Both the position numbers and the translations under genes were made by a program. Of a stretch of DNA of 64,000 nucleotides, positions 7,924 to 57,507 are shown piece by piece (the first letter of the stretch is position 1; the number at the start of each line of letters is the position of its first letter). The notes below the pieces were generated by a model. That model searched no databases. It worked only from the letters and a program-made list of their open reading frames with translations, and had not been told where the DNA came from. The stretch comes from Alphaproteobacteria bacterium (lineage in GTDB: Bacteria > Pseudomonadota > Alphaproteobacteria > UBA9219). The DNA is taken from NCBI GenBank assembly GCA_031291395.1, contig JARLJD010000109.1, positions 8,294-72,293 on the forward strand. Reading direction: 5' to 3'.

Positions 7924-8778
7924 TCATCCCTCGCTGCGCTTTTTGATTTTCTTCGTCTCCGGCAAATAATTTGTCTTGCTGACGACTTTGCGGCCGGTTT
8001 GAACTTCCAGTTCCTTGCGCGCTTTACCGGCGACTTTGCCGCCTTCAATGGCGGCGACCCTGTTTTTGTTGAAGCCATGCGCGTTTTTGGTCTGCGCGAT
8101 TTCGGTCGTCGCGGCTTCGCCCAGCATCGTGAAAATCAATTCAAGATCGTTCATGTGGTCGCGCAGATTATGCTGCTTGCCAAGGCTTTTCAGGTTTTTG
8201 TATTGCTGCGGTTTCAGGCCGAACGTTGCCTGAGATATTTCTGCCGTTAAAATCGCGTATTCCTTTGTGCCTTTGACGCCGCGCTTGCCCCATTCTTCGG
8301 TCAGCTTTTCGCGAACGGCTATGCCGCGCATGCGTTTTTCGATCCAGTCGTTGGGATAGCCCTTGGCTTTGTATAATTCGCGCGTGCGCTGCGTGGCGAG
8401 TTCGGGATTTTCGATTTCCTTGATGCGTTCATAGCCGATTTTGGCCAGCCACAGCTTAAACGGTTCGGCCTTGGGCGAGGGGACGGATTGGATGATGCGC
8501 AGCATCGTTTCGGTGTTGGCGCAGTCGGTTGTATATAATTTTCCGTCAGCCGAGGGCAGTTTGAGTTGTACGATTTTCTCGTACAACTGGTTCTCTCCTT
8601 GTTCTTGCTCCACTTTCCTTTTCAAATCAGACCAATAGCGGCGCGCATTGGCGCTTTCGCTAAGAACGCCAACAACATCAACCACCGAAAACAACCACTC
8701 ATTGTTATGCCATTTGCGGCGGATGTGGTGATCTTCAAAAGCGACCAGATGTGACGGCACAGAGGGGAGGTTAGACAT
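7924..8778 (-). CDS. DinD-like / Bro-N domain protein (DNA-damage-inducible protein D family)
   Basis: The N-terminus (FEDHHIRRKWHNNEWLFSVVDVVGVL) resembles a Bro-N/KilA-N-like DNA-binding module. The C-terminal half matches my memory of the DinD family. This family is often phage-associated. Confidence 0.5.
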   Translation of the reverse strand: MSNLPSVPSHLVAFEDHHIRRKWHNNEWLFSVVDVVGVLSESANARRYWSDLKRKVEQEQGENQLYEKIVQLKLPSADGKLYTTDCANTETMLRIIQSVPSPKAEPFKLWLAKIGYERIKEIENPELATQRTRELYKAKGYPNDWIEKRMRGIAVREKLTEEWGKRGVKGTKEYAILTAEISQATFGLKPQQYKNLKSLGKQHNLRDHMNDLELIFTMLGEAATTEIAQTKNAHGFNKNRVAAIEGGKVAGKARKELEVQTGRKVVSKTNYLPETKKIKKRSEG

Positions 8779-8821
8779 TGCGTTTCCTTTGCGTCCTAAA
8801 GTGAATGGGCTTTCGCGGTTC

Positions 8822-9694
8822 TCACTGCCCATTCACCCCCGCATTCATAGTCCCAACCAATTCCGCCAGTTTCTGCGTCTCATCCACCGCGATCATGCCG
8901 ACGGTGTGGTAGCCGGAATCGACGTGAAGAACTTCGCCGGTGACGCCTGTACCCAGATCGCTAAGCAGATAAAGGGCGGAATGGCCGACTTCGAGCGTGG
9001 TGACGTTGCGTTTTAACGGCGCGTTGACTTCGTTCCATTTCAGGATGTAGCGGAAATCGCCGATGCCGCTGGCGGCCAACGTCTTGATCGGGCCTGCGGA
9101 AATGGCGTTGACGCGAATGCCTTTGCCGCCCAGATCGACCGCCATATAGCGCACGCTGGCTTCCAGCGCGGCTTTGGCGACGCCCATCACGTTGTAGTGC
9201 GGCATCACGCGCTCGGCGCCCAGATAGCTGAGCGTCAGAAGGCTGCCGCCGCGGGGCATCAGCGGCATCGCGCGGCGCGCCAGCGCGGTGAAGGAATAAC
9301 AGGAAATGTCCATCGTGCGCAGGAAGTTCTCGCGCGTCGTATTGACATAAAGCCCGTCAAGTTCGTTTTTGTCCGAAAAGGCGATTGCGTGGACGAGAAA
9401 ATCGAACGATCCCCATTCTTTCTTCAACGCTTCGAATAAAGAGTCCATGCTTGCTTCGTCCGTCACGTCGCAGGGCAGGATCAGTTTCGAGCCGACGGAG
9501 GCGGCCAAAGGCGCGACGCGTTTTTGCAGCGCCTCGCCCTGATAGGTGAAAGCCAGTTCCGCGCCTTGTGCGGCGCACACGGATGCGATGCCCCAAGCCA
9601 GCGAACGGTCGTTCGCCACGCCCATAATCAAGCCGCGTTTGCCGGAGAGGAGTGAACCTTGAAGGGCCGCGGCGGGAGAGGGAGATTCTATCAT
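8822..9694 (-). CDS. fabI: enoyl-[acyl-carrier-protein] reductase (NADH) FabI
   Basis: An SDR fold with LSGKRGLIMGVANDRSLAWGIA at the N-terminus and the FabI catalytic region (YNVMGVAKAALEASVRY). Confidence 0.85.
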   Translation of the reverse strand: MIESPSPAAALQGSLLSGKRGLIMGVANDRSLAWGIASVCAAQGAELAFTYQGEALQKRVAPLAASVGSKLILPCDVTDEASMDSLFEALKKEWGSFDFLVHAIAFSDKNELDGLYVNTTRENFLRTMDISCYSFTALARRAMPLMPRGGSLLTLSYLGAERVMPHYNVMGVAKAALEASVRYMAVDLGGKGIRVNAISAGPIKTLAASGIGDFRYILKWNEVNAPLKRNVTTLEVGHSALYLLSDLGTGVTGEVLHVDSGYHTVGMIAVDETQKLAELVGTMNAGVNGQ

Positions 9695-9857
9695 GTTGTC
9701 CTCGGAAAATACAAAAAAGCTCGCCGGACTTTACACGATTACGGTTGAGCGTCAAATGGCGGAGATTTGGTGAGGGGTGTTGCGGGAACTTGCCAGAAGA
9801 AACGGGAATTCGTATATATCAGTCTATAAATCTTCTTTCGCGAGCGTACGGCGGTTC

Positions 9858-9890
9858 GAATCCACCCCTGTCCACCATCCTCAAACGCGT
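9858..9890 (+). ncRNA. tRNA-Ala/tmRNA-like 3' terminal fragment (T-arm, acceptor 3' strand, CCA)
   Basis: ggcggttcgaatccacc cctgtcc a cca: a T-loop TTCGAAT, a 7-nt acceptor 3' strand with U at position 70 (implying a G3:U70 alanine identity pair), discriminator A and an encoded CCA. No D-arm, anticodon arm or matching 5' acceptor strand lies nearby. Confidence 0.4.
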
Positions 9891-9909
9891 CGCGTTTAAA
9901 GATGCCGCA

Positions 9910-10860
9910 ATGAAGGAAAATATGCGCGCATTCGTTATTATCGCAACCAAAGGGCGCGCGAAAGAAACGCGTGTTCTTCTGGACTTTTTGCAGCGCCAGA
10001 CTTTGCCGCCTGCCTATGCCCTTATCGTCGGAAGCGAAGCCGGGGATATCGACGGGTGCGGCGATCATCCTTTGTTGGCGGCAGGGCGCGGCGAGGCTTT
10101 TGTGTCGCCGCGCGTCGGTTCGACTTGCCAGCGCAACGCGGGGCTAGAGGCGCTGAAACGGCGCGGCGCGTTCGGGCAGAGCGGCGGCGATTGCTTTTGC
10201 GCCTTCTTCGACGATGATTTCCGTCCAGCTGCTGATTGGCTGGAAAACGCAGCCGCGCGTTTTGAAAAAGGCGGCATTGTCGGCCTGACGGGCCTCGTGC
10301 TGGCCGACGGCGTCACGACCGGCGGCTTGACCGAGGAACAGGCCGCCGCCTTCTTAAGCGGAAAAACGCCGCCTGCCGCACGTTATGCAAACATGAATAC
10401 CGAGCGCGAGACCGAGTGCGCCTATGGCTGCAACATGGCTTTTATCGGCACAGTCGCGCGCGACATCCGCTTTGACGAAAACCTCCCGCTTTACGGCTGG
10501 CAGGAAGACCGCGATTACACAGGGCAATGTTTGAAGTTGAATCTCGGCCGCGCGGTGTTCGTGCCTTCTTGCGTCGGCGTGCATAGGGGCGTGTCGAGCG
10601 GCCGCACCAGCGGCTTGCGCCTCGGCTATTCGCAAATCGCCAACCCTTTGTACCTGATGAAAAAGGGAACCATGACCTTAAAATCGGGTCTTTTGCATAT
10701 GGCGCGCAATGCCGTCGCCAATGTCGTCAAAAGCGTTGCCCCGCCTCGCCCCAATGTCGATTACAAAGGCCGCCTCATCGGCAATCTCCGCGCGATCGGC
10801 GACGTTCTGCGCGCCATATCGAACCCGCGCCGGATTCTGGATGCGGATTTTCAGGCTTGA
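9910..10860 (+). CDS. GT-A fold (family 2-like) glycosyltransferase
   Basis: N-terminus RAFVIIATKGRAKETRVLLDFL plus a FFDDDFRP acidic motif. The start is set at ATG 9910; the ORF upstream of that overlaps fabI. The 3' end overlaps the convergent GT4 gene by 86 nt. Confidence 0.55.
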   Translation: MKENMRAFVIIATKGRAKETRVLLDFLQRQTLPPAYALIVGSEAGDIDGCGDHPLLAAGRGEAFVSPRVGSTCQRNAGLEALKRRGAFGQSGGDCFCAFFDDDFRPAADWLENAAARFEKGGIVGLTGLVLADGVTTGGLTEEQAAAFLSGKTPPAARYANMNTERETECAYGCNMAFIGTVARDIRFDENLPLYGWQEDRDYTGQCLKLNLGRAVFVPSCVGVHRGVSSGRTSGLRLGYSQIANPLYLMKKGTMTLKSGLLHMARNAVANVVKSVAPPRPNVDYKGRLIGNLRAIGDVLRAISNPRRILDADFQA

Positions 10861-13201: not shown

Positions 13202-14425
13202 TTACACAAAATTCCGCATAATATCCTCGAAACTATCCCGCCTGCGTATCAGTCTGTCCTTGCCGTCGGAGCTGATCAAAACCTCCGCAGGTTTCAGCCT
13301 GCAGTTATAGTTGGAGGACATTGAAAAGCCATAAGCGCCCGCGTTCATCACCGCAATGATATCGCCTTCGCCTATGGGAGGAAGAACCCTGTCTTTTGCG
13401 ATGATGTCGCCGCTTTCGCATATGTTGCCGACAATGGTCGCTTTCTCGTTTCCGCCGGAAGATGCCTTCTTTTGCGCAACCCTGATCTGATGATATGAGT
13501 CATACATGACCGGTCTGGCGAGAACATTGAACCCCAAATCCGTGCCGACATACTTGATCCCGTAATTTTCTTTAACCGAATACACCTCGCCCAAAAGCAT
13601 CCCGCATTCGGCAACGATGTATCTTCCCGGCTCGGATTTGAACATGATATTTTTGTTGTCATACTTTTCTATGAACGCGGAAAAAACGGCGTCAAGTTTT
13701 CGGGACAATTCGGCAAGATCAAGCCTGTGTTCATCTTCCTTGTAAGGAACGCCAAAACCGCCGCCCATGTCGATAAAATCGAGTCCACGAAACTCGTGCG
13801 CGATTTCCAGAAGGTTTTTCACCCCGTCAATATACTTGTCCCCATCCAGAAACAGCGATCCGATGTGCTGATTGATCCCGACAAGTTTCAGGTCGTACTT
13901 CTGTATTAATTCTTTCACATGCCCGATAAAATCTTTCTGAACCCCGAACTTTGTTTTCTTTCCCGCAGTGACGACTTTCTCGTGATGCCCCGCGCCGACA
14001 CCCGCGTTAAATCTGACGGCGACTCGCCCGCCACGATTGATTTTGCCAAAAAGTTCCAGCTGCGAGAGGGAATCCACGCTGACAAGAACGCCTCTTTCTA
14101 TCGCATACGTCATCTCGTCCGCCGAGACGTTGTTCCCAATATAAAGAATCCTTTCTTTTGGGAACCCCGCTTCCTGTTCAACAAAAATCTCTCCCGGAGA
14201 CATGGCGTCGACGTCAATATCCTCGCTCAAAACAATTTTCAGCAATTCAAGATTGCTGTTCGCTTTTGCGGAATAATTGACCCTGTAATTTTTATTCGGC
14301 AGCAGATTCCTGATTTCCCTGCATCGCTCTCTCAGTATGTTTTCATCATAGACATAAAGCGGGCTGCCGTATTTCTCGATCAAGTCAAAGGCTCTGTCGT
14401 TGCTGATAAACATTCTATTCCCCAT
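13202..14425 (-). CDS. lysA: diaminopimelate decarboxylase-like PLP-dependent decarboxylase (Orn/DAP/Arg decarboxylase family 2)
   Basis: 407 aa. Alanine-racemase-like TIM barrel plus C-terminal beta domain; GSPLYVYDE N-terminal motif and CESGD near the C-terminus. Adjacent to dapA. Noticeably AT-rich. Confidence 0.7.
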   Translation of the reverse strand: MGNRMFISNDRAFDLIEKYGSPLYVYDENILRERCREIRNLLPNKNYRVNYSAKANSNLELLKIVLSEDIDVDAMSPGEIFVEQEAGFPKERILYIGNNVSADEMTYAIERGVLVSVDSLSQLELFGKINRGGRVAVRFNAGVGAGHHEKVVTAGKKTKFGVQKDFIGHVKELIQKYDLKLVGINQHIGSLFLDGDKYIDGVKNLLEIAHEFRGLDFIDMGGGFGVPYKEDEHRLDLAELSRKLDAVFSAFIEKYDNKNIMFKSEPGRYIVAECGMLLGEVYSVKENYGIKYVGTDLGFNVLARPVMYDSYHQIRVAQKKASSGGNEKATIVGNICESGDIIAKDRVLPPIGEGDIIAVMNAGAYGFSMSSNYNCRLKPAEVLISSDGKDRLIRRRDSFEDIMRNFV

Positions 14426-14446
14426 GCGTTGTATCGGTTTCCCGCT

Positions 14447-15343
14447 TCAGTTCAGCAGCCCTTGCTCTCTCATAACGGACGCCAAGAACTGACGATTGGC
14501 TTCCTCCATTTCGAACATCGGCAGACGCAATTCAGGGCTGTCGATCAGTTTCATCATCGCCATAGCTTCCTTGATCGGCCCGGGATTCGATTCGACAAAA
14601 ACGGCTTTGAAAAGCGGAAACAACTTCAAATGCAATTCACGCGCCCGCTGAAAATTGCCGGACAGCGCGGCGCGTATCAATTCGCTCATTTGTTTTGGTA
14701 TGATGTTGCCCACAGTGGAAATCACCCCTTTGCCGCCAACCGCCATGCAGGCAAGCGCCATATTGTCGTCTCCGCATAACATGGAAAAATTCTTCGGGCA
14801 CAGGCGTACAACCTGCGTCATTTGATCAAGCGAGCCGGAAGATTCCTTGACGCCGATGATGTTGGGGCAATCCTGCGCCAGCTTCGCCAAGGTCGCTGTT
14901 TCCATATTGACCGCCGTTCGGCCCTGAATGTTGTAAACAATAATGTCGAGCGGCGTGGATTCGGCGACAGCGCGGAAATGATGATAAAGCCCTTTTTGCG
15001 TCGGGCGATTGTAATAGGGACAGACAATCAGCGCGCCGTTCGCGCCATTGCGCTCCGCCTGTTTGGTGACTTCGATCACATGCTTGGTATTATTGGAACC
15101 GGTTCCGGCAAACACGGGAATTTTCTTTTCCGCTGCCTCGACGATTGTTTTTACAACGCGCCCATGTTCTTCGAGGCTCAGCGTCGGAGCCTCTCCCGTC
15201 GTGCCGCAAGCGATAATCCCGCTTGTGCCGTTTTCTATCTGAAATTTTACAAGTTTCTGGATTTGTTGTTCATCGACAACGTTGTCTTTAAACGGAGTGA
15301 CCAGAGCGACGAAACTTCCTTCAAGCGCAAAAGACATAGACAT
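14447..15343 (-). CDS. dapA: 4-hydroxy-tetrahydrodipicolinate synthase
   Basis: 298 aa. GTTGE motif, the active-site Lys context IIGVKES and YNIQGRT. AT-rich like lysA. Confidence 0.8.
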   Translation of the reverse strand: MSMSFALEGSFVALVTPFKDNVVDEQQIQKLVKFQIENGTSGIIACGTTGEAPTLSLEEHGRVVKTIVEAAEKKIPVFAGTGSNNTKHVIEVTKQAERNGANGALIVCPYYNRPTQKGLYHHFRAVAESTPLDIIVYNIQGRTAVNMETATLAKLAQDCPNIIGVKESSGSLDQMTQVVRLCPKNFSMLCGDDNMALACMAVGGKGVISTVGNIIPKQMSELIRAALSGNFQRARELHLKLFPLFKAVFVESNPGPIKEAMAMMKLIDSPELRLPMFEMEEANRQFLASVMREQGLLN

Positions 15344-18226: not shown

Positions 18227-18303
18227 GCGGGTGTAGCTCAGTTGGTTAGAGCGTCGGCCTGTCACGCCGAAGGTCGCGGGTTCAAGTCCCGTCACTCGCG
18301 CCA
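18227..18303 (+). tRNA. tRNA-Asp (GTC)
   Basis: GCGGGTGTAGCTCAGTTGGTTAGAGC...CCTGTCACG...GGTTCAAGTCCCGTCACTCGCGCCA: a cloverleaf with anticodon GUC and an encoded CCA. Confidence 0.9.
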
Positions 18304-20174: not shown

Positions 20175-20251
20175 TGGTGCGCCCTGCGGGATTCGAACCC
20201 ACGACCTGCCGCTTAGAAGGCGGCCGCTCTATCCAACTGAGCTAAGGGCGC
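20175..20251 (-). tRNA. tRNA-Arg (TCT)
   Basis: The reverse complement reads GCGCCCTTAGCTCAGTTGGATAGAGCGGCCGCCTTCTAAGCGGCAGGTCGTGGGTTCGAATCCCGCAGGGCGCACCA. The anticodon loop CTTCTAA gives anticodon UCU. Confidence 0.85.
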
Positions 20252-20319: not shown

Positions 20320-20913
20320 TTACGGCTTGGCGTAGGGTTCGGCTTGAATCCACAGGATTTTCCAGTTGTCGCCATAGGCGGCGGCCAGTTTGGGGGCGTT
20401 CCACAGGACGAGGACGTTTTCGGAATTATGTTGCTCGGCCGCGGCGGTGTAGTTGAATGAGCCTGTTTCCACGGTTTTGCCGTCGATCACCATATATTTG
20501 TCGTGCTGCAACGTGTGGATAATATCGACGCGGAGGGGGATTTTGGCGGTTATCAGGGCAGCCGTGACGGAATGATTGCTTTTTTCGATCTGGCCGTGAT
20601 CGACGACAACCTCGACATCGATCCCCTCGCGATGCGCCGCGATCAGAGCCGCGGCTATGGGGCGCGAGGTGAAAGAATAGGCGGCGATGCGAATGCTTTG
20701 CCGCGCCGATTGAATCGCCTTGATGACCAGATCCGTTGCCCCGCCGTTGGGGGAGAAGGCCACTTCGACCGAGGGCGGCATTTCCGTTATTTGCGTCCCG
20801 CCCCCTTGAATGGCTTGAACCAAGCGCTGGGCGAGGGTGGAGGCGTGGGCGGGCGGAATCCACGAGAAGAAAAGGGCAAGCGAAATAAACGCAAGGCTGG
20901 GCTTGGGCTGCAT
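20320..20913 (-). CDS. secreted phospholipase-D-family endonuclease (Nuc-like, single HKD motif)
   Basis: Signal peptide MQPKPSLAFISLALFFSWIPPAHAS. The HKD motif lies within LQHDKYMVIDGKTVETGSFNYT. Confidence 0.75.
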   Translation of the reverse strand: MQPKPSLAFISLALFFSWIPPAHASTLAQRLVQAIQGGGTQITEMPPSVEVAFSPNGGATDLVIKAIQSARQSIRIAAYSFTSRPIAAALIAAHREGIDVEVVVDHGQIEKSNHSVTAALITAKIPLRVDIIHTLQHDKYMVIDGKTVETGSFNYTAAAEQHNSENVLVLWNAPKLAAAYGDNWKILWIQAEPYAKP

Positions 20914-21464
20914 GCGAGTCCTTTGTCCTCCGCCAGAGCTTCGCTTGCGCGGAGGGGATGGCGGCGGTTACGCGGGGAGGAGAGGGTGGTTGGTTAGATC
21001 TTATTTCACTTTCTACTCCCTTTTTTCGTCACCTTTTCCAAAATCTACTTCCAAAATTGACGCCCCCATGGGATCCCTGCGCGCAAACGCTGGGATGTAC
21101 AACGCCCTGATAGATCGACCCTTCACTCGAGACCCCGGGATCTCTTAGGACAGCTACCACTACCAGTCACCGCCCCCTTATGCTTCTCATCAGGGTGATG
21201 ATGGGAGGTATCATATACCGTGTTTGGGAAATATGCAAGAGGTTTTTGGGGGGCGGGGATTTTTTTTTGGGTTCTTTTCTGCATATCCTGTTTTCTTGAG
21301 AAAACAAGAAAAGCGAGAAAGTAACCAAATGGGATTCCGGATAAATTTTGCGCCGCAACGGTCAGTTTTCAATCACAAAGTTGGTTAGGGCGCAAAATTT
21401 TCCGGAATGACGATCTTTCGTTTTTCGAGTTTTTAATAAGAGACTTTAATGAGACGAAGAATAA

Positions 21465-22409
21465 TTAAAAGCTACATGGTGTGGCGGCCGTTGCTACCTT
21501 ATGGGGTAAACCTCGCTGCATAGTTCTTTTGAGGCGAGGGGGAGACGCGGAATTGGCGGGCGCGTTTACTTGCTTTTCGGCGGCAAACCATGGGAGCCGC
21601 CTGTTGTTAACCAGGGGCTTAAGTCTCCTTGTTTTGTGAAGATCGACGATTTGTTGAGCCACTGTTAACAGCCTTGTTGATCCCAGATTAATCTCAACAA
21701 TTTTGTTCGCTTTCATATCCAGCGCCTGAATGACGCCAGGAAGCCGCGCTGCTCTGGCAAATTTAGAGTTATTGCTCGCGCCCAGCAAACAGTGAGCGGC
21801 TTTGACTATGGCAACGCCCGCAGGAGTGTAAAAAGATTCTAATGTAATTGTTTTGCTTTGCGAATCTGCGATCGTGTTCTGGAACTGATGCGTACATTCA
21901 GCGTTGAGGACAAATGATTCCCACCCCTGCTTAAGTTGGAGGAGTCTTTTGATGCCTTTGTCGTTATTGGCGACGACTTGCGTGACAAGCGCGCTAATCA
22001 AAAGGTCGTTGGCTTTTAGATATGTTTGCAGAATGCAAGCGTTGTATATGAGATCAAGGCAGAACCCTGCTGGCTTTTCTCCCGGCCTCCATATTGAGCC
22101 AATTTCGGCAAAATTGACATCTAAGGACATAGGCTGCGGCTCACATGAGCGGGCAGTAACTGTCGAGCCTATGTTTATACAGCCAGGAAGAATGTGAACC
22201 GCTCCTGTTGCGGCGATGTTTCCTTCTGGTGTTGTTAACAGCAACATCAGGTCGTTGTTGATCGCCGCCCCAAAAGCTTCTGGTGTGCGTTCAAAAACAG
22301 TCGAAGGCTTTCGTGGATCCTGAAAGAATTTGACAATATACGGAAGGTCTTCGTAGTTGGCTATACGAAGCGTATATCTGATAGGCTTTTCTTCTTGATC
22401 ATAATTCAT
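21465..22409 (-). CDS. hypothetical protein, 314 aa, no motif I recognise
   Basis: A long ORF in an AT-rich islet. It is the second gene of an apparent two-gene operon; only 24 nt separate it from the upstream XRE-fusion gene. Confidence 0.5.
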   Translation of the reverse strand: MNYDQEEKPIRYTLRIANYEDLPYIVKFFQDPRKPSTVFERTPEAFGAAINNDLMLLLTTPEGNIAATGAVHILPGCINIGSTVTARSCEPQPMSLDVNFAEIGSIWRPGEKPAGFCLDLIYNACILQTYLKANDLLISALVTQVVANNDKGIKRLLQLKQGWESFVLNAECTHQFQNTIADSQSKTITLESFYTPAGVAIVKAAHCLLGASNNSKFARAARLPGVIQALDMKANKIVEINLGSTRLLTVAQQIVDLHKTRRLKPLVNNRRLPWFAAEKQVNAPANSASPPRLKRTMQRGLPHKVATAATPCSF

Positions 22410-22433
22410 GTTCTTAATCCCTGCGCCTTATCA

Positions 22434-23114
22434 TCAGGCCGTCTCGGTTGCTTTAATCGGCTTTGCGTTTCTCCATAAAACATGGAACATATCGCGATAC
22501 GCCTTGGCGACGAGCGCCGACGAAATGACAACTATTTGGGGCTCTTTATTTTCCTCGAATATAAGAATTCCCAGCTTGTCTCCGTATACATAAAAGGGGA
22601 CATTTCCTTCTGTTGCATCTGTCTGGAGGCGATATTCCCTATAATTTGTGTCAGGAATTTCTAATGATACTCCGTCTTTAGCCAGTATCTTGACTCTGAT
22701 TTTATTTTGCAAAGCCTCCATGCGTTTTGCATGAAGGACGGAGTAATCATACAAGTGCTTTACAAAGAAACGGTCATCTACATTACTCACGAAAATCGGC
22801 TTATCTCCGTTTGTTCCTGTGCTTTGCCGAAGAGCGGCTTGATAAACATCGTCCAGAAAACTTTTAAACCCTTCAATGCCAGAATATGTGAATACTTTAT
22901 TTTGATTGCGTCTTATGCCGTCGTTTTCTGTAAACTCAACCCCATGCACCGCAAACGCCCTTATAATCGCCTCCTCTGTCGTTTCCTGCGGCCTGAACGT
23001 TCCGTGTTCTATATTCTTAATCGTTTCCGGCGAGATTCCCGACGCCTTGGACAGGTCGCTTCTGCTCCAGTCCAGCAGGCCTCGCGCGGCTCTTAATTGT
23101 GCGGCGGTTATCAT
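22434..23114 (-). CDS. XRE-family HTH domain fused to a C-terminal domain of unknown function
   Basis: N-terminus MITAAQLRAARGLLDWSRSDLSKASGISPETIKNIEHG is a canonical XRE HTH. About 150 further residues have no motif I recognise. AT-rich. Confidence 0.55.
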   Translation of the reverse strand: MITAAQLRAARGLLDWSRSDLSKASGISPETIKNIEHGTFRPQETTEEAIIRAFAVHGVEFTENDGIRRNQNKVFTYSGIEGFKSFLDDVYQAALRQSTGTNGDKPIFVSNVDDRFFVKHLYDYSVLHAKRMEALQNKIRVKILAKDGVSLEIPDTNYREYRLQTDATEGNVPFYVYGDKLGILIFEENKEPQIVVISSALVAKAYRDMFHVLWRNAKPIKATETA

Positions 23115-23442
23115 TCGTTACTTACCCAATAATGCTCAAAAACTAAACTTGCCCGCAGAGGGGGCGTTTTTTCAATTCGGGTACTAAACTACCCTTTAAG
23201 GGAAGCCTTATGCAAGCGAATGATTACTTTCGTCGCTTTTTTGGCCTTTGCGCGTATTTTTACCGCCGATTTTAAAAATCCATATCTTATACCTTAATAA
23301 CTTCTAAACCAAAAAAAAGTTTTATGCAACCATTTATTGGTATTTAATTGCCGGTAATTGGTATGTATACTCTAACTATGGTCGCCGCGTTATTTTCGTG
23401 GCGCATTATTCAGAAACGAATTTTTTAAAAGGATAGAACGTC

Positions 23443-23763
23443 ATGCACAAGATATATATGACAGGCGCAAAAGAAGGCATCCCCGCGATGCAGGATGTTG
23501 GCGCATCGGTCGAAGATAATGTCATTATGCCGCGACGGTGGATGAAGGGACAGGCTGCTATGCGACAAACGCAGCAAGCCGTGAACGCCAACCAGCTGAC
23601 ATCGATCAGCGCGATGATTGCCTATATTTCCTATCATTCCGGTCAAAGCGAATTTAAAATCGAACGCGGTCTTTCCGATCGTTTCAATGTTCCGAACGCC
23701 AAGTGTTTGGCGGCGGACGATTTCGATGCCGCTATTCGTTATTTAGCGGATATAATTCCCTGA
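23443..23763 (+). CDS. hypothetical protein, 106 aa
   Basis: An ORF with an upstream AAAGGA ribosome-binding site, in the AT-rich region. Confidence 0.3.
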   Translation: MHKIYMTGAKEGIPAMQDVGASVEDNVIMPRRWMKGQAAMRQTQQAVNANQLTSISAMIAYISYHSGQSEFKIERGLSDRFNVPNAKCLAADDFDAAIRYLADIIP

Positions 23764-23792
23764 TGCGTTTTTTTCCCAAGGCGGGGGCTTCA

Positions 23793-24164
23793 ATGAAAAA
23801 TCTGACGGTTCTGGTTTTGGCGGCGCTTGTCGTTTTTTATGCGCCCGAGGCAAAAGCCGTGAGGATAGCGCCGACCGTGCAGGTTTTTATTCCGCAGGTG
23901 CCGTCTTTGCCGACTGTGCCAAGCTATCCGACGCAGGCTCCTCAAATTCCGAGCGTGGGGTTTATGCCGACGGTTACGACTATTTCTCAAGCGCCCCTGT
24001 CGCCGCAGACGACTTATGCGCCTCAAACGCAATATTACAATACGCAGCCGCCTCTCGTTCCCACAGCGCCTACCGCAGAGCAAGACACAACCGCGCCAAC
24101 GGTGCAAAGGTATAATTCCAATCCGCAGATCTTGCCGCAGGTTCAGATTTATACGGATCCTTGA
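23793..24164 (+). CDS. secreted proline/glutamine/threonine-rich low-complexity protein
   Basis: Signal peptide MKNLTVLVLAALVVFYAPEAKA followed by PTVQ/PQ-rich repeats. Confidence 0.4.
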   Translation: MKNLTVLVLAALVVFYAPEAKAVRIAPTVQVFIPQVPSLPTVPSYPTQAPQIPSVGFMPTVTTISQAPLSPQTTYAPQTQYYNTQPPLVPTAPTAEQDTTAPTVQRYNSNPQILPQVQIYTDP

Positions 24165-24211
24165 TTTTTAATAAGTGACTCTGTTTGACAGTTTCAAATA
24201 ACGGTGAAGCG

Positions 24212-35570: not shown

Positions 35571-38282
35571 TCACCCGTTCGCCGCATGCAATTCTTCTTT
35601 GATTTGCTGCAGGTGCCCGTCGAGGATTCCGAGGGTGTCGACCAGTTCCGTTAGAATCTCCGCTTGTTTTTCGAGTTGGACTTGCGTGGCAAAATCAGAG
35701 ACGGATCTGGTTGGCGCAAGCGTCGGCTTGGCGGTCAGACGGGTTTCTATTTTATCGAGTTGCCCTGCAATTTCTCCGACCAGACTGGCGCGCGAGGCTT
35801 CGATCTGCGCCGACACCTGAAACCACTGGTCGAGGAATTGCTGCTGCATCTCCGGCGGAATGGAACATGTCGGCATCGGGATGGGTTTGCCCGCTTCCGC
35901 TTGCGCGGCCTCTGCCGCCTGACGAGTCGCGGCGAGCTCTTGACCGAACGCGCTGAGCGCCAGATTGGTTTCCCCCTGCGCGGCGGCGATCTTCTCGCCA
36001 AGCGCGGCGATGTCGTTTTGTTCGCTTAGATTCTGCAGTTCTTCCCGCAAATTCTGGCGCAAGTCGCCGGGCAAGGCCGAAGCCAGAATGGCGACTTTGC
36101 CGTTCAGTTCGGCCAGTTCCGCGACTTTTTCCTCTAGAACGGAAAGCTGGTTTTGCTCCTTCAAAACTTGCAGCTCCTCCCGCAAATTCTGGCGCAAATC
36201 GCCGGGCAAAGCGGAGGCCAAAATGGCGACTTTGCCGTTCACTTCGGCCAATTCCGAAATCTTTGCGCCGAGATCGGCTATATCGTTGTGCGCGGTTATG
36301 CGTTGCAAATCTTCCTGTAAATTGGAGCGCATTTGGTCGGGCAGGGCGGTGACAAACGCGGCAATCCGTTCGTGCAATGCGGTCAACGATGCCGCTACGG
36401 CCTCCTTCTGCTCCGCATGATTTTGCGCGAGGTTTTGTTCCAAAGCCCCGGCCAAGCCCGCTTGCGCGTCTTTCTGTTCGTCAAGTTTGATTTGAAGCGC
36501 CGCCAATTGTCCCGCGATATGTTCAAACTGGCTTGCTAAGGGAACCAAAGCGGATTCCGGCGCGGCTCCAACCTGAATGTTTGTTTGCCCCTCCAGCTTG
36601 TTTTGCACCAAGGCCAATTGGCTTGCGATTTGTTCAAGCTGACTTTTCAAAGGCGCTGCAATCGCGTCCGGCGCAGCGCCTTTTTCCAAGGCCTCCGCAA
36701 AATAGGCATGCGCGTTTGTTTGCTCGTCCAGTTTAACCTGTAAGACATCCAACTGCCCCGCGATATGTTCGATCTGGTCGGTCAAAGGAGCCAATACGGA
36801 TTCTTGCGTTGCCGCGCCGACAGGCGTGTTCGCCTTTTCGTCCAGCCCGTTTTGCAGCGTCGTCAACTGATCCTTGATCTGGTTCAACCGTTCGGCCAGC
36901 GCGGCGAATTGCGCTTCGGGGGCGTTGTTTTTGATGTTCTCCGTCGTTTCGGCCAGAACTTTTCCGCCCGCTTGCAGCAAATTAATCGCGCCGAACAAAC
37001 GCTCGCCCAGATCGTCCGCCGTCGAGGAAAGTTTGTTTAGCGTTTCCCCTGCTTGTTCGGCGTTCGACTTCAAACCGATTTCGCTGGTGGCCAAAGACTG
37101 CAACGTTTGCGCGATCTGCTTGCCCGTTATTTGCGTAATCTCGGCAAGCCCTTGAGCGCGATCCTGAATAAGCGGGATCAAGCGGGTCAACTGATCGGCG
37201 GCGTGCGCGTGCGCGTTTTTCAAATTTTCCGCCGAACCCGTCATCTCGGCAATCGCCTGTTTAATCTGCATATCGCCACTTTGCCCGCTTTTGGCAATAT
37301 TTTGTAAAATCGTTTCGACTTTTTGCGCTAGCGCGGCGACGGACTGCTTTTGTAGCGCAACGGCATCGGTCAGCGTCGCGGCCTGCGCGCGGATGGTTTC
37401 CGAGTCGCCGGAGATCGCCTTCATCATTGCTTCGAACAGAGAGCGCGAACCGCCTTCAAACCGCATGCGCACGGGGCCTTGTTCGCTGAGCAGCGACAGA
37501 TCGGGCAGGTGGCTGAATTGATATCGCGCCAGATCAACGGCGCGCGCCAACTCGCCGATCATGTCCTGCCGTTCGATGCCCCAAATGGCGGTGCGCATGT
37601 CGCCGCGCGCCATATTCTGGATGCTTTGCGCCAGCGCGCGCATGGGTGCGGATTGCCGGTCGCGTAAAACCAAATAAATGCCGGCGGCGCAAGCGGCCGC
37701 GATGATCAGGCTGCTCCAACTGACCAAGGTCAGTAGCATCGCCCAGAACTGCATCCCTTTTTGCGCCGCAAGCCGCGCCGAGGCATTGGCGGCCGCGTCC
37801 CGCGTTTCCAAAACCGGCAAAGTCGCATAAAGCGGCGCAAGATCGGCGGCGGTGAATTCATTTGCCCCTGTTGCGTCCGCAGGCGCGTCGATTTTCTGCA
37901 GCGCTCCATCGAACATCGCGGCAATCGCGGTCAATTCGCGGTGCGTCTCGGCGGAAGTTGTGTCAGGCAGATGCGCGACGATATCATCCGCCGATTTGAT
38001 CAGTTCTTTCATATCGGCAAAGTTCGACGCGTCGCGCGTCGAGACATATTTCTGCGCAAGGCCGACAAATCCCCCATAGCCCCAATCGCGGCGCAAACTG
38101 TCGAACATATCCTGATTGCCGCCCAAAGCGTTATCGGGCGCGGCCAGCACTGTCTCCGCGCGGTCGAGCTGATATTTCATATACCCCGCCCCGCCGATCA
38201 TCGCCACGCAGACAAAGACTGTAAGGCTAAGCGCAAAAGCAGCAAAACGACTGACGCCGGAGAAGGGAGAGTTGGGGGACAT
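35571..38282 (-). CDS. large membrane-anchored HAMP-domain coiled-coil protein with internal tandem repeats
   Basis: Two TM segments flank a periplasmic region of about 200 aa. A HAMP-like segment follows (PMRALAQSIQNMARGDMRTAIWGIERQDMIGELARAVD), then about 600 aa of heptad-rich sequence with repeated blocks (e.g. VAILASALPGDLRQNLREELQ twice). The start is set at the internal Met preceding TM1. Confidence 0.45.
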   Translation of the reverse strand: MSPNSPFSGVSRFAAFALSLTVFVCVAMIGGAGYMKYQLDRAETVLAAPDNALGGNQDMFDSLRRDWGYGGFVGLAQKYVSTRDASNFADMKELIKSADDIVAHLPDTTSAETHRELTAIAAMFDGALQKIDAPADATGANEFTAADLAPLYATLPVLETRDAAANASARLAAQKGMQFWAMLLTLVSWSSLIIAAACAAGIYLVLRDRQSAPMRALAQSIQNMARGDMRTAIWGIERQDMIGELARAVDLARYQFSHLPDLSLLSEQGPVRMRFEGGSRSLFEAMMKAISGDSETIRAQAATLTDAVALQKQSVAALAQKVETILQNIAKSGQSGDMQIKQAIAEMTGSAENLKNAHAHAADQLTRLIPLIQDRAQGLAEITQITGKQIAQTLQSLATSEIGLKSNAEQAGETLNKLSSTADDLGERLFGAINLLQAGGKVLAETTENIKNNAPEAQFAALAERLNQIKDQLTTLQNGLDEKANTPVGAATQESVLAPLTDQIEHIAGQLDVLQVKLDEQTNAHAYFAEALEKGAAPDAIAAPLKSQLEQIASQLALVQNKLEGQTNIQVGAAPESALVPLASQFEHIAGQLAALQIKLDEQKDAQAGLAGALEQNLAQNHAEQKEAVAASLTALHERIAAFVTALPDQMRSNLQEDLQRITAHNDIADLGAKISELAEVNGKVAILASALPGDLRQNLREELQVLKEQNQLSVLEEKVAELAELNGKVAILASALPGDLRQNLREELQNLSEQNDIAALGEKIAAAQGETNLALSAFGQELAATRQAAEAAQAEAGKPIPMPTCSIPPEMQQQFLDQWFQVSAQIEASRASLVGEIAGQLDKIETRLTAKPTLAPTRSVSDFATQVQLEKQAEILTELVDTLGILDGHLQQIKEELHAANG

Positions 38283-38387
38283 GATGATGAAGGAAATGGG
38301 AACGGGGAAGGCGGGGGGATTATGGTAAATTTTGGGTGGAAAAGCAATCGGTTCATGGGGCATGCTTACCCCCACGTCAAAAAAAAT

Positions 38388-38530
38388 GTCGTTATTCCAG
38401 CGAAAGAGGGAATCCATCTTGAGGCGCGTCTGCGCCGATAAAAACAACTGCATTTTCAATGGAACTGCAGTTGGACTTTTATGCTCGCTATCGCGAGCGA
38501 TGGATTCCTGCTTTCGCGGTAATGACGATC
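38388..38530. repeat. repeat family C, full element with terminal inverted repeats
   Basis: gtcgttattccagcgaaagagggaatccatc ... gatggattcctgctttcgcggtaatgacgatc. Confidence 0.65.
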
Positions 38531-42942: not shown

Positions 42943-43881
42943 ATGAAGTTTTCTGGAATCAATGCCATTATTTCCACTCCGTTCACAAATGGGGAAGAAG
43001 TCGACTATGAAAGCCTGTGCAATTTAATCGACAAAATCGTTTGCAAGGGCGTTCACGCGATTACGATATTGGGCGTGGCGAGCGAGGCGCAGAAACTTTC
43101 GGCACAAGAACGGTCTGAAATTGCGGCAAAGGCTTTTGAGACTGTGGCTGGACGCTGTCCTGTTGTCGTGACCACATCCGGCAATGATACGGATGCAGTC
43201 GTTTCAGCCTCGCTTGCGGCGGAACGCGCGGGCGCTGCGGCTGTTATGGTCGCGCCGCCTAAGGGACTGAAATTCAGTCCTGAACTTGTGGAGCATTACA
43301 GCAAAATTGCGCAAGCGATATCCATTCCGATCGTGCTTCAAGACCTGGCCGAAGCGACGGGGGTTGATTTGTCTCCTCGCGCGATGTCTGAATTATTGAA
43401 AGCGGTGCCGCAGATAACGGCGATCAAGCTCGAAACGCCCCCGACTCCGCTGCGGATAAGCGAGACGCGCAAACTTGTTTCGGATGAAATAGCTATTTTG
43501 GGCGGAAACGGTGGCGTCCATTTCTTGAATGAACTGCGCCGCGGCGCGAACGGAGCGATGACCGGCTTTGCGTACACGGAGGCCTTACTGCAAATCTGGA
43601 ATTATTGGAACATTGGGAATCGCGCTGCCGCGGCAAAAAGTTATTTGGAAATTCTTCCTCTGCTCGTTTTTGAATTTCAGCCCAAGATTGGCGTTGCCAT
43701 TCGCAAAGAGATTCTAAAACGGCGAGGATTGATCAAAACGGCGGTTCTGCGGGGCGTTCCCGAAGGGCTTAGTCCTGAAATGCTTTCCGATTTGTCTGAA
43801 ACTCTTGTCGACCTTGGCGTTCAAGAGAGGTATGACGATAGGAGGCGTGAGGAAATAAGTGAGCCTGTTTTGGTGAGTTAG
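42943..43881 (+). CDS. DHDPS-family (class I aldolase) protein, a DapA paralogue
   Basis: 312 aa with the TPF N-terminus and DHDPS-fold motifs. A bona fide dapA exists at 14447-15343, so this is probably another aldolase of the family. Confidence 0.6.
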   Translation: MKFSGINAIISTPFTNGEEVDYESLCNLIDKIVCKGVHAITILGVASEAQKLSAQERSEIAAKAFETVAGRCPVVVTTSGNDTDAVVSASLAAERAGAAAVMVAPPKGLKFSPELVEHYSKIAQAISIPIVLQDLAEATGVDLSPRAMSELLKAVPQITAIKLETPPTPLRISETRKLVSDEIAILGGNGGVHFLNELRRGANGAMTGFAYTEALLQIWNYWNIGNRAAAAKSYLEILPLLVFEFQPKIGVAIRKEILKRRGLIKTAVLRGVPEGLSPEMLSDLSETLVDLGVQERYDDRRREEISEPVLVS

Positions 43882-47114: not shown

Positions 47115-47118
47115 AAGC

Positions 47119-47513
47119 GCCAGACGGTCTATAAGCCGGGTTTTGTCATCGCATTGCTGCAATGGACGATCATTCATCTGGGACGTTTGTTGCCAAACGC
47201 CTCAAGCAACCAACCCGAGCCGCGCGCGGGGAAAGCGCCGCGCACCTATGATACGAATATCAGGTATGCGCTATGCGGCTCCTATTCGGTTTTGCTTCGG
47301 GTGGGGTTTTCCGTGCCGCCTTTGTTGCCAAAGACGCGGTGCGCTCTTACCGCACCTTTTCACCTTTTCCCTCCCTTACGAGAAGGTAGTTTGTTTTCTG
47401 TGGCACTTTCCTTCGAGTCGCCCCGACCGGACGTTATCCGGCACCCTTTTCCCCTGAAGCCCGGACTTTCCTCCCCAACCTGAAGGAAGGGGCGATCATC
47501 CGACCGTCTGGCG
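47119..47513 (-). ncRNA. rnpB: RNase P RNA, bacterial type A
   Basis: The reverse complement carries GGAGGAAAGTCCGGGCT (P4), GGGTGCCGGATAACGTCCGG, AAGGGTGAAAAGGTGCGGTAAGAGCGCACC, CACGGAAAACCCCACCCGAAGCAA and AGATGAATGATCGTCCA...ACAAAACCCGGCTTATAGACCGTCTGG. It is colinear with E. coli M1 RNA, and the P1 pairing is CCAGACGGTC/GACCGTCTGG. Confidence 0.85.
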
Positions 47514-54981: not shown

Positions 54982-57507
54982 ATGCGCATAAGCCTTATCT
55001 GCGGCGGCCCTTCCGCCGAGCGCGGCATATCCTTAAACTCCGCGCGGTCGGCGATGGATCATCTGACGCCATTGGGGTGGGAGATCGTGCCGTTCTATTG
55101 CGATCTGGAACGCCATTTCTATCGCTTGTCGCCTTCGCAGCTTTATTCCAACACGCCATCCGATTTCGATTTCAAACTGGCGCATACGGCGCAGCCTTTG
55201 ACGGAAAGCGAATTCATCGCAGCGTGCCGCGAAACCGATCTTGTTTTTCCCGCCATTCACGGCGCGTTCGGCGAGGACGGGCAGTTGCAGGAATTGCTGG
55301 AAGCGCACGACATTCCCTTTGTCGGCTCTCCCGCCGCCGCATGCCGGTTGATGTTCGATAAGGCGATCGCCAACACGCATATGGCGCAGCACGGCTTTGC
55401 GACATTACCAAACTGCCGCATCGACGAAAGCGACGCGCCGGATGTTCGGTTGAAAAAAGCGAGCGATTTCTTTGCGCGCACTCACATCGACAAAGCTGTC
55501 GTGAAACCTTCCGCCGGAGGGTCGAGCCTCGGCGTCGCAAGCGCGGTAACGCCGCAAGAAGCCGCCGCGCGCGCCGAGGATATTTTTGCGCAAAAGCACG
55601 GTGCGCAAGCTCTGATTGAGCCTTATTGCCAAGGCCGCGAATTCACCGTCGTCGTTTTGCAAAACAAAAAGGGCGAGCTGGTCGCGTTGATCCCGACCGA
55701 AATCGACCTGATCGGCGGCGATCTGTTCACGTTCCGCCATAAATATCTGCCGACCTGCCACGTCGAATATCATTGCCCGCCGCGCTTTGCCGACGACGTG
55801 ATCGCGCGCATTCAGAAAGCCGCCGAGGTTCTGTTTACCTTTTTCGACATGCGCGATTTCTCGCGCCTCGACGGCTGGCTGTTGGACGACGGGCGTTTGA
55901 TTTTCTCGGATTTCAATCCTATCTCGGGCATGGAGCAAAACAGTTATCTGTTCATTCAGGGCAGCCGCATCGGCTTCACCCACGGCGATACGCTGCGGTA
56001 TATCGTCGCGCACGCGGCGGAACGGTATGGGATCAAAGCCCCTCTCCCCCCCCTTGGGGGGAGAGGGGTTGGGGTGAGGGGGGAAGTTGGGGTTTGTGAA
56101 TCCCTCGTCCCCCCTCACCCCCGCATCAAGTGCGGGGCAGGCTCTAACCCTCTCCCCCCAAGAGGGGGGAGAGGGAATCCGCCCACAAACATCCGCGTTC
56201 TTTTCGGCGGAACGACGGCGGAACGCCAAGTCTCTTTGATGTCCGGCACAAATGTGTGGCTGAAATTGTTGCACAGCGCGGATTATATGCCCGCGCCTTA
56301 TATCCTCGCGCCGGAACATGAAATCTGGCAATTGCCTTACAGCTTCACCCTCAATCACACGGTCGAGGAAATCCTCGCGCGGTGCGCCGAATCCGAAAAT
56401 ATTGTTGCGCGGCTGAAAGTCCTCGTCCCGCCTCTGCGCCAGCGTTTGGGCTTGCCGCCCTTGCCCGCCAACGCTTTTATCCAACCGCGCCGCATGAGCC
56501 TCGATCAATTCTGTCGGGAATCCGCCGATGAAAACGCCTTCGTGTTCATTGCCCTTCACGGCGGCGAGGGCGAGGACGGGACGTTGCAGGCGAAATTCGA
56601 CAGCTACGGACTTGCCTATAACGGCTCCGCGCCTGCGGCCTCGCATGTGTGCATGGATAAAAGCGCGACGGGCGACGTTTTGCGCGCTTTGAACGATCCG
56701 CTTTTGACCTCTGCCGGAAAAGTTTTGCTGACGGCGGGGCAGGGGGGACGGGCCGAAGCGATTTGGGCGGACGCCGTGCAAAAATTGAAAACCGCCGACA
56801 TCCTCATCAAGCCGCAAGCCGACGGCTGTTCCGCGGGAGTCGTGCGTTTGCAATCCGCGCAAGAATTGAAACTGTATCTGCAAGCTTTGGCGCAAGGGCA
56901 AACGATGCTGCCCGCGGGCACGCTGGCGCATCAACCGATGATGATCGAATTGCCTGAACAGGCGGACGCCTTCATGCTCGAACCCTTTATCGTCACTGAC
57001 GCTATTTATATCTCCGGCCTTCATCTTACGCACACGCCGCGAACCGGCTGGATCGAATTGACGGTCGGCGTGTTGGAAGAAAAAGGCGTTTATCACGCCC
57101 TGTCGCCCAGCATCACCGTGGCCAAAGGCCATGTCCTCTCGCTGGAGGAAAAATTTCAGGGCGGCACAGGCGTCAACCTGACCCCGCCGCCTGCCGACAT
57201 CATTTCCGGCGAGCAAATCGACCTGATCAAAAGCAAAATTGAAAAAACCGCCAATGCGCTAGGCATCGAAGGCTACGCCCGCATCGATATTTTCTTTAAC
57301 ACGCGCAGCAACCAGACAATGGTCATCGAAGCCAACACTTTACCGGGACTCACCCCCTCGACGGTTATTTATCATCAATCCCTAGCCGAAACCCCGCCGC
57401 TTGCGCCGCGCGAGTTTTTGGCGAAATTGGTGGAATTCGGCAGGGAACGGCAGGCGCGAGGATTGGAAGAAACGCGATCTGTGGCGCAAGCGGTGAGAGA
57501 ATTATAG
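54982..57507 (+). CDS. tandem (double) D-alanine--D-alanine ligase-like ATP-grasp protein, linker encoded by a family-A repeat
   Basis: Residues 1 to about 353 and about 400 to 841 each resemble a complete Ddl (N-domain MRISLICGGPSAERGISL / IRVLFGGTTAERQVSLMSG; E.NT.PG(L/M)T C-terminal motifs). The roughly 47-codon linker is the repeat copy at 56041-56183 with no stop codon in this frame. Confidence 0.6.
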   Translation: MRISLICGGPSAERGISLNSARSAMDHLTPLGWEIVPFYCDLERHFYRLSPSQLYSNTPSDFDFKLAHTAQPLTESEFIAACRETDLVFPAIHGAFGEDGQLQELLEAHDIPFVGSPAAACRLMFDKAIANTHMAQHGFATLPNCRIDESDAPDVRLKKASDFFARTHIDKAVVKPSAGGSSLGVASAVTPQEAAARAEDIFAQKHGAQALIEPYCQGREFTVVVLQNKKGELVALIPTEIDLIGGDLFTFRHKYLPTCHVEYHCPPRFADDVIARIQKAAEVLFTFFDMRDFSRLDGWLLDDGRLIFSDFNPISGMEQNSYLFIQGSRIGFTHGDTLRYIVAHAAERYGIKAPLPPLGGRGVGVRGEVGVCESLVPPHPRIKCGAGSNPLPPRGGRGNPPTNIRVLFGGTTAERQVSLMSGTNVWLKLLHSADYMPAPYILAPEHEIWQLPYSFTLNHTVEEILARCAESENIVARLKVLVPPLRQRLGLPPLPANAFIQPRRMSLDQFCRESADENAFVFIALHGGEGEDGTLQAKFDSYGLAYNGSAPAASHVCMDKSATGDVLRALNDPLLTSAGKVLLTAGQGGRAEAIWADAVQKLKTADILIKPQADGCSAGVVRLQSAQELKLYLQALAQGQTMLPAGTLAHQPMMIELPEQADAFMLEPFIVTDAIYISGLHLTHTPRTGWIELTVGVLEEKGVYHALSPSITVAKGHVLSLEEKFQGGTGVNLTPPPADIISGEQIDLIKSKIEKTANALGIEGYARIDIFFNTRSNQTMVIEANTLPGLTPSTVIYHQSLAETPPLAPREFLAKLVEFGRERQARGLEETRSVAQAVREL
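56041..56183. repeat. MITE-like repeat family A copy lying in-frame inside a coding region
   Basis: cctctcccccccccttggggggagagggg ... ccccctcacccccgcatcaagtgcggggcaggctctaaccctctccccccaagaggggggagagggaatccgcc. Confidence 0.7.

Follow-up and report, generated by a model that had tools for sequence, protein, structure and literature searches.

Between fabI and a glycosyltransferase gene, in a 64,000-nt stretch of DNA from an uncultured alphaproteobacterium (the window, in whose coordinates all positions are given), lies what is left of a tRNA-Tyr gene. As judged by sequence comparison, the fragment derives from a class II tRNA-Tyr(GUA) gene and from neither a tRNA-Ala nor a tmRNA gene; it covers about 59 nt, with positions 1-27 of the parent tRNA missing and the anticodon region decayed. 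We infer that this non-functional 3' remnant is, on balance, most likely a tDNA fragment displaced by an integrase acting at the anticodon loop and later separated both from its island and from the intact gene. Remnants of this sort are an ordinary and common kind of genomic scar, and the correct label for the present one is tRNA-Tyr pseudogene fragment.

The most tRNA-like segment of the locus, GGCGG-TTCGAAT-CCACC-CCTGTCC-A-CCA, can be read directly from the plus strand at 9850-9877. The first-pass annotation had placed a tRNA-like 3' end at 9858-9890, an interval that begins in the middle of the T loop and overruns the CCA by 13 nt; the T-arm, acceptor and CCA features that it reported are real, and their true span starts about 8 nt further left. 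Its TTCGAAT T-loop, acceptor 3' strand, discriminator A and encoded CCA are all present, above a T stem that is imperfect, with one C·A mismatch (C9852 against A9864). The 25-mer running from the T stem to the CCA, GGTTCGAATCCACCCCTGTCCACCA, occurs a single time in the window, and none of 100 shuffled sequences matched it at up to three mismatches. Base for base, the locus is 100% identical in two independent Logan assemblies (SRR23300977 and SRR23300978) and so did not arise as an error of one assembly. Downstream, as had been claimed, the DNA is coding, the glycosyltransferase reading frame opening at an ATG at 9910 or 9922. A short palindrome located 6 nt after the CCA drew no call from the terminator scan; it may be a leftover of the 3' flank of the tRNA gene. 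The fragment and its surroundings are set out in Table 1.

Table 1. The tRNA-Tyr fragment, its parts and its immediate neighbours in the window.
Feature	Position	Strand	Evidence or remark
fabI (enoyl-ACP reductase), left neighbour, divergent	8822-9694	-	Pfam adh_short_C2, 313 bits
fabI promoter TTGACG-16-TAAAGT	9728-9755	-	Only promoter-like site called in 9500-10100
Weak promoter-like TTGCCA-17-TATATA	9790-9818	+	Abuts the 5' edge of the fragment; putative, read from sequence
tRNA-Tyr gene 3' fragment (tRNA positions 28 to 76, encoded CCA included), ~59 nt, pseudogene/relic	9819-9877	+	Alignment, BLAST, covariance model
Decayed anticodon arm, anticodon ATA (9826-9828) for GTA	9819-9835	+	13/17 against GCAGA-CTGTAAA-TCTGC
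Class II long variable arm, TTT CGCGAGCG TAC	9836-9849	+	11/14 against L087/L006; 14-nt length as in alphaproteobacterial genes
T arm GGCGG-TTCGAAT-CCACC	9850-9866 (loop 9855-9861)	+	16/17 against L087; sole change a T>C transition at 9852
3' acceptor strand CCTGTCC, discriminator A, encoded CCA	9867-9873, 9874, 9875-9877	+	11/11 against at least 115 complete tRNA-Tyr genes, several phyla
Short palindrome AAACGCG-T-CGCGTTT	9883-9897	+	6 nt after the CCA; read from sequence
GT2-like glycosyltransferase, right neighbour, first of the GT2-GT4-GT4 module (to 13068)	9922-10860 (ATG 9910 or 9922)	+	Annotated glycosyltransferase family 2, 312 aa

A genome scan for the 23-nt 3' end, TTCRAWTCCNCCCCTGTCCACCA, covering one genome from each of 185,579 species, returned at least 120 loci. 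ARAGORN called complete tRNA-Tyr(GTA) genes at no fewer than 115 of them among the matches listed, and these genes come from Acidobacteriota, from Sphingomonadales and other Alphaproteobacteria, from Clostridia and from other groups; the remaining loci among the matches listed are two tRNA-Phe genes, one archaeal tRNA-Ala(GGC) and two orphan fragments. The archaeal gene (L112, 7-82 on the minus strand, from a Methanomassiliicoccaceae MAG) has the 5' acceptor strand GGGCAGG and thus a G3:U70 pair, and both tRNA-Phe genes (L026 and L030) are bacterial. Since the same 23 nt are common to tRNA-Tyr, tRNA-Ala(GGC) and tRNA-Phe, the 3' end alone cannot identify the isoacceptor.

The sequence further upstream can. 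In a gapless alignment anchored on the CCA, 51 of the 59 positions in 9819-9877 are identical to 86-nt alphaproteobacterial tRNA-Tyr genes (L087, L006, L013, L017 and L033). Within this alignment, 28 of the 36 nt immediately upstream of the searched 23-mer match in a fixed register (binomial P ~5e-9); this evidence, independent of the search pattern, we regard as decisive for the tRNA-Tyr identity. The distance from the anticodon loop to the T stem, 19 nt, equals that of the 86-nt genes, and the body upstream of the T arm consists of a 14-nt class II variable region and a CTATAAA loop homologous to the CTGTAAA of tRNA-Tyr, with no class I short variable loop or NGC anticodon. Two further methods gave the same answer. 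By BLAST against GenBank phages, the window from 9818/9820 to 9877 aligned to annotated tRNA-Tyr genes at 79-80%, and a covariance model built from 37 tRNA-Tyr genes scored the site at 30-32 bits (rough E ~4e-6 over the window), the 5' third fitting poorly. Taken together, the scan, the alignment, BLAST and the covariance model define a tRNA-Tyr 3' piece of about 59 nt, which is more than a T arm and an acceptor strand. The earlier statement that the remaining tRNA body is absent therefore holds for positions 1-27 (window 9792-9818), where identity in register is random (6 of 27), and fails for the variable arm and the decayed anticodon arm, both of which are present (Table 1).

Compared with alphaproteobacterial class II tRNA-Tyr(GUA) genes of the 86-nt type, such as those of a Sphingomonadales MAG (L087) and a Rhodospirillaceae MAG (L006), the fragment differs by one transition in its 3' 39 nt, and it shares with them both the spacing and the variable-arm sequence CGCGAGCGTAC. 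It is unlike them in that positions 1-27 are gone, the anticodon reads ATA, and pairing is disturbed in the anticodon stem as well as in the variable stem; nor do ARAGORN, tRNA covariance models or Rfam call it a gene. Eight substitutions separate it from L087, the closest full gene among the matches listed: 9819 G>T, 9823 A>T, 9826 G>A, 9834 G>T, 9836 C>T, 9837 C>T, 9838 G>T and 9852 T>C. The third of these turns the anticodon GTA into ATA and the last creates the C·A mismatch of the T stem, while the run at 9836-9838 leaves TTT where the genes read CCG, so that the first two variable-stem positions are mutated and the base of that stem is unpaired. In the anticodon stem at most two of five pairs are possible.

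Decay has been uneven. Seven of the 20 positions in 9819-9838 are mismatched, five of the seven changes being GC>AT, against one of the 39 positions in 9839-9877 (Fisher P = 0.0014). Possible reasons are that an A/T-rich promoter region was selected for once the rearrangement had taken place, that the fragment is composite in origin, or that it was partly converted by the intact gene. Neither the 5' acceptor strand GGACAGG nor a D arm is present at the site, where ARAGORN made no call, and no tRNA-Tyr 5' half was found elsewhere in the 64-kb window. The covariance model offered one alternative, with GGUGAGG at 9769 as the 5' acceptor strand; it forms five of seven pairs across a 32-nt insertion for a gain of 1.5 bits, as expected by chance, and was rejected. 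The fragment is predicted to be incapable of making a functional tRNA because it is without a 5' acceptor strand and a D arm, its anticodon stem is broken and its anticodon would read AUA. At most, it would be a passive passenger in the leader, upstream of the coding part of the glycosyltransferase mRNA.

We also compared the gene order on either side with that of relatives. The upstream 9.8 kb of the window carries, all on the minus strand, fliN, fliH, fliG, fliF, aroC, a gene for an MFS transporter, a BRO-N gene and fabI. Downstream lie the GT2-like gene and two GT4 genes, both of the latter with Pfam matches, followed by lysA, dapA, ispDF, uppP, tRNA-Asp, an SLT-domain gene, a methyltransferase gene and tRNA-Arg. 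Relatives with 85-87% FabI identity keep the linkage of aroC to fabI, and the only intergenic part that they retain is a 31-nt block containing the fabI promoter; past it they carry unrelated genes (prfC, a pga operon, polysaccharide export) and no tRNA fragment. On the other side, glycosyltransferase relatives (L133 and L134, 77% and 69% identity) hold the GT2-GT4-GT4 module inside larger polysaccharide clusters, in which the GT2-like gene follows directly on other genes and lacks its own promoter region; no tRNA lies near the module in either. Because synteny with the fabI-side relatives and synteny with the glycosyltransferase-side relatives both break at this point, the fragment sits exactly at a synteny breakpoint, where fabI adjoins a three-gene glycosyltransferase module that has been relocated, and it marks a rearrangement beside fabI in this uncultured alphaproteobacterium. 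In a BLAST search of 9758-9910 against phages and plasmids only the tRNA-Tyr part found a match, the 60 nt that separate the fragment from the fabI promoter finding none, and tblastn revealed no synteny between canonical tRNA-Tyr loci and the window.

Some further observations concern the fabI side. A 1656-nt contig (P0002; ENA ERZ21849424) encodes a 385-aa FabI-like product made up of a partial FabI and, joined to it, another FabI copy of greater divergence; either a chimeric assembly or, in a related organism, a tandem duplication probably accounts for it. The BRO-N protein beside fabI (7924-8832, minus strand) is a full-length match to the PADLOC candidate defence family PDC-S13 (E 1.3e-116, 387 bits). 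In relatives, the slot between fabI and aroC that it occupies holds a relB/yafQ toxin-antitoxin pair or small unknown ORFs, and this variable content makes the slot look like a small insertion hotspot.

Orphan 3' fragments of tRNA-type genes are a classic by-product of integrase action at tDNAs (PMC4383910), and to this extent the first-pass annotation, which had read the segment as such an orphan, has been borne out. When a tyrosine integrase acts on a tDNA, the gene is cut in two and made whole again by the incoming element, and the native end piece that has been displaced marks the island's far border (PMC4383910). In the Islander collection 3' fragments were recorded in 3760 of 3919 islands and anticodon-centred sites in 2083 (PMC4383910), and tRNA-Tyr is a documented integration target, for example of SLP1 (PMC2440964). 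The geometry of the present fragment fits an att scar: it reaches the CCA, and its 5' edge falls at tRNA position 28, in the 5' strand of the anticodon stem, which corresponds to the 'A' sites of Islander. It overlaps no protein domain, lying between the starts of fabI (9694) and the glycosyltransferase gene (9910 or 9922). It is on account of this geometry, with a 5' edge at the anticodon stem and a 3' end that runs through the CCA, that we take the fragment to be, most likely, an old integration scar. In such a history a tyrosine integrase would have recombined at the anticodon loop of a tRNA-Tyr gene, splitting off the native 3' part from the anticodon stem onwards; both the island and the intact tRNA-Tyr gene would later have become separated from the scar by loss or rearrangement, and the anticodon-arm part would since then have gained mostly GC-to-AT changes. 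The fragment thus suggests, without proving it, that a tRNA-Tyr-targeting mobile element was once active in this lineage.

By the orientation rule for such sites, the intact gene has to stand upstream of its 3' fragment, in the same orientation and with the island between them, which by the Islander criteria means 2-200 kb away on the same replicon (PMC4383910); any island would therefore have stood on the fabI side of the fragment and not on the glycosyltransferase side. No intact tRNA-Tyr gene is found there in the 9.8 kb upstream, nor anywhere in the 64-kb window. A second copy of the fragment was likewise absent from the window, whether sought at up to three mismatches, as further matches of the covariance model or as direct repeats in 9-26 kb, and no ORF of at least 90 aa across the 64 kb has an integrase or recombinase Pfam domain. 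These absences from the window speak against an integrase origin, as does the flank on the island side, which holds core genes, with the conserved fabI promoter only about 60 nt from the fragment. The uneven distribution of mismatches, moreover, is not what simple, uniform neutral decay of one displaced fragment predicts.

The likeness to known cases is correspondingly partial. As in the displaced 3' fragments at anticodon-centred Islander sites, the sequence is intergenic and extends from the anticodon stem through the CCA; unlike those, it is partly decayed, it is flanked by core genes, and the window contains no cognate intact tDNA, integrase or island. With SLP1 of Streptomyces coelicolor and similar elements it has the target isoacceptor in common, whereas the host phylum and the tRNA-Tyr sequence are different and element genes are absent here. 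It is also a partial tRNA gene of the kind ascribed to the integration of genetic elements in cases described by van der Gulik et al. 2023 (PMC9897764); those cases had been mis-called as canonical by tRNAscan-SE, whereas the present fragment is too truncated for ARAGORN to call at all.

A comparable fragment among the matches of the genome scan supports the fit to an att scar. In a Clostridia MAG (CAKQQQ010000002.1; L025, 7137-7190, minus strand) an independent orphan tRNA-Tyr 3' fragment starts exactly at the anticodon loop (CTGTAAATCTG...), within an AT-rich intergenic stretch in which no tRNA was called. It has the look of an att-type fragment, and the examined part of the contig showed no integrase. 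A scan of viral contigs returned five, all with complete tRNA-Tyr genes (four of them in phage tRNA arrays) and none with an attP-type fragment, and in one of these contigs (L130) no integrase lies beside the tRNA-Tyr gene. The exact GGCGG T-stem variant had no match in a scan of JGI metagenomes.

Plain rearrangement is the explanation that competes best with an integration scar. A tRNA-Tyr paralogue that once stood upstream of the glycosyltransferase module, or beside fabI, could have lost positions 1-27 at the breakpoint that joined the two, with no integrase involved. We hold this to be possible, though rather unlikely. It would account for the position of the fragment exactly at the breakpoint relative to both sets of relatives and for a window that is without integrase, partner or repeat, and a rearrangement-prone spot is suggested by the region upstream of fabI, which is different in each of the relatives examined. 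It does not, however, anticipate the combination of a 5' edge at the anticodon stem with a run to the very 3' end, which is the geometry of an anticodon-loop integrase; a random breakpoint would fall within a few nt of the anticodon-stem edge in roughly one case in ten, and the canonical tRNA-Tyr loci have no neighbour genes in common with the window.

A different proposal concerns function. The fragment, or the AT-rich sequence that replaced its 5' part, might have been co-opted as a promoter or 5' leader of the glycosyltransferase gene, as a tRNA-like leader module of T arm, acceptor and CCA, or as a secondary attB still usable by tRNA-Tyr-targeting integrases. The contrast between a 3' block that is nearly perfect (38 of 39 nt) and an adjoining 20 nt strongly altered towards A/T speaks in its favour. 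The TTGCCA-17-TATATA element is placed directly against the fragment, in front of a gene that in relatives lacks a promoter region of its own. Against this, the element fails the rule of the promoter scan for a T at position 6 of the -10 hexamer; the fold predicted for the leader has unremarkable stability (z = -1.78) and leaves the T arm unformed; enzymes of tRNA processing have no minihelix to act on, since the 5' acceptor strand is missing; and, as no relative carries the element, evidence of conservation is lacking. We consider co-option improbable. More doubtful still is its boldest version, in which the 39-nt block would be a retained functional module, either a tRNA-like leader element fed by a promoter that arose from the decayed 5' part or a live secondary attB through which the spot would stay open to elements that target tRNA-Tyr, or, at the extreme, the 3' half of a bacterial split tRNA.

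The first-pass annotation had interpreted the segment as the 3' end of a tRNA-Ala or tmRNA gene with an implied G3:U70 pair, left as an attL or attR beside a cargo of glycosyltransferase and lysA-dapA genes, or else as the acceptor piece of a permuted two-piece tmRNA; we now regard both versions as very remote. U70, A73 and the CCA are indeed present, and one archaeal tRNA-Ala(GGC) has the same 23-nt 3' end. The long class II variable arm and the CT[A/G]TAAA loop, however, match tRNA-Tyr and not a class I tRNA-Ala or a tmRNA, and variable arm, alignment, BLAST, covariance model and the loci of the genome scan all give tRNA-Tyr. As for the G3:U70 pair, the fragment has U70 and no 5' strand. The 5' acceptor strand of tRNA-Tyr, the gene found at at least 115 of the at least 120 loci with this 3' end, is GGACAGG, and U70 therefore pairs with A3 rather than with G3; A3 is present in 117 of 118 complete genes with the same 3' end among the matches listed.

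The tmRNA version fared no better. ARAGORN found no tRNA or tmRNA at the site, permuted forms included, its only tRNAs in the window being tRNA-Asp (18227-18303, plus strand) and tRNA-Arg (20175-20251, minus strand). At gathering thresholds Rfam likewise had nothing at the site, and in the window only tRNA-Asp, tRNA-Arg and RNase P RNA; with relaxed thresholds the sole related match at the site was the tmRNA model RF00023, whose 8.8 bits (gathering score 47) came entirely from the T arm and acceptor. Of the other parts of a tmRNA (tag reading frame, pseudoknots, 5' acceptor strand) none was found: only 217 nt are intergenic, they contain no GG[AG]CAGG partner, and the flanks are coding.

The supposed cargo meets a separate difficulty. 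The lysA-dapA region (13202-15343, minus strand) does have a lower GC content, 0.49-0.50, a point in favour of this reading. The orientation rule nevertheless sets any island upstream of the fragment, and downstream there is no second copy within 54 kb; it argues against glycosyltransferase, lysA and dapA genes as cargo of the event that left the fragment, unless further deletions are invoked. The fragment alone offers no basis for delimiting a genomic island with these genes. Chance, finally, is a negligible explanation of the likeness to a tRNA 3' end, given the outcome of the shuffles, the agreement outside the searched motif and the covariance-model E value reported above.

Several other features of the window deserve mention. 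On the 5' side of tRNA-Arg(TCT), the interval 20320-24200 has a low GC content (0.44-0.47, compared with about 0.55-0.59) and encodes a PLD-like nuclease with weak DrmC-like PADLOC matches, a 314-aa protein without family, a 226-aa HTH_3 protein and an unknown protein of 153 aa; the interval may be an islet that was acquired or is related to defence. A second DHDPS-family paralogue (42943-43881, plus strand) is located 28 kb away from lysA-dapA. The 962-aa ORF at 35571-38459 (minus strand) matched no Pfam family at E <= 0.001. At 54982-57507 (plus strand) an 841-aa ORF matches the N-terminal and the C-terminal domain of D-Ala-D-Ala ligase in two stretches each, which suggests a tandem double Ddl-like fusion. 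The bacterial class A RNase P RNA (47116-47511, minus strand) is full-length at 326 bits and carries, relative to the Rfam consensus, an extra insertion of about 30 nt in one helix.
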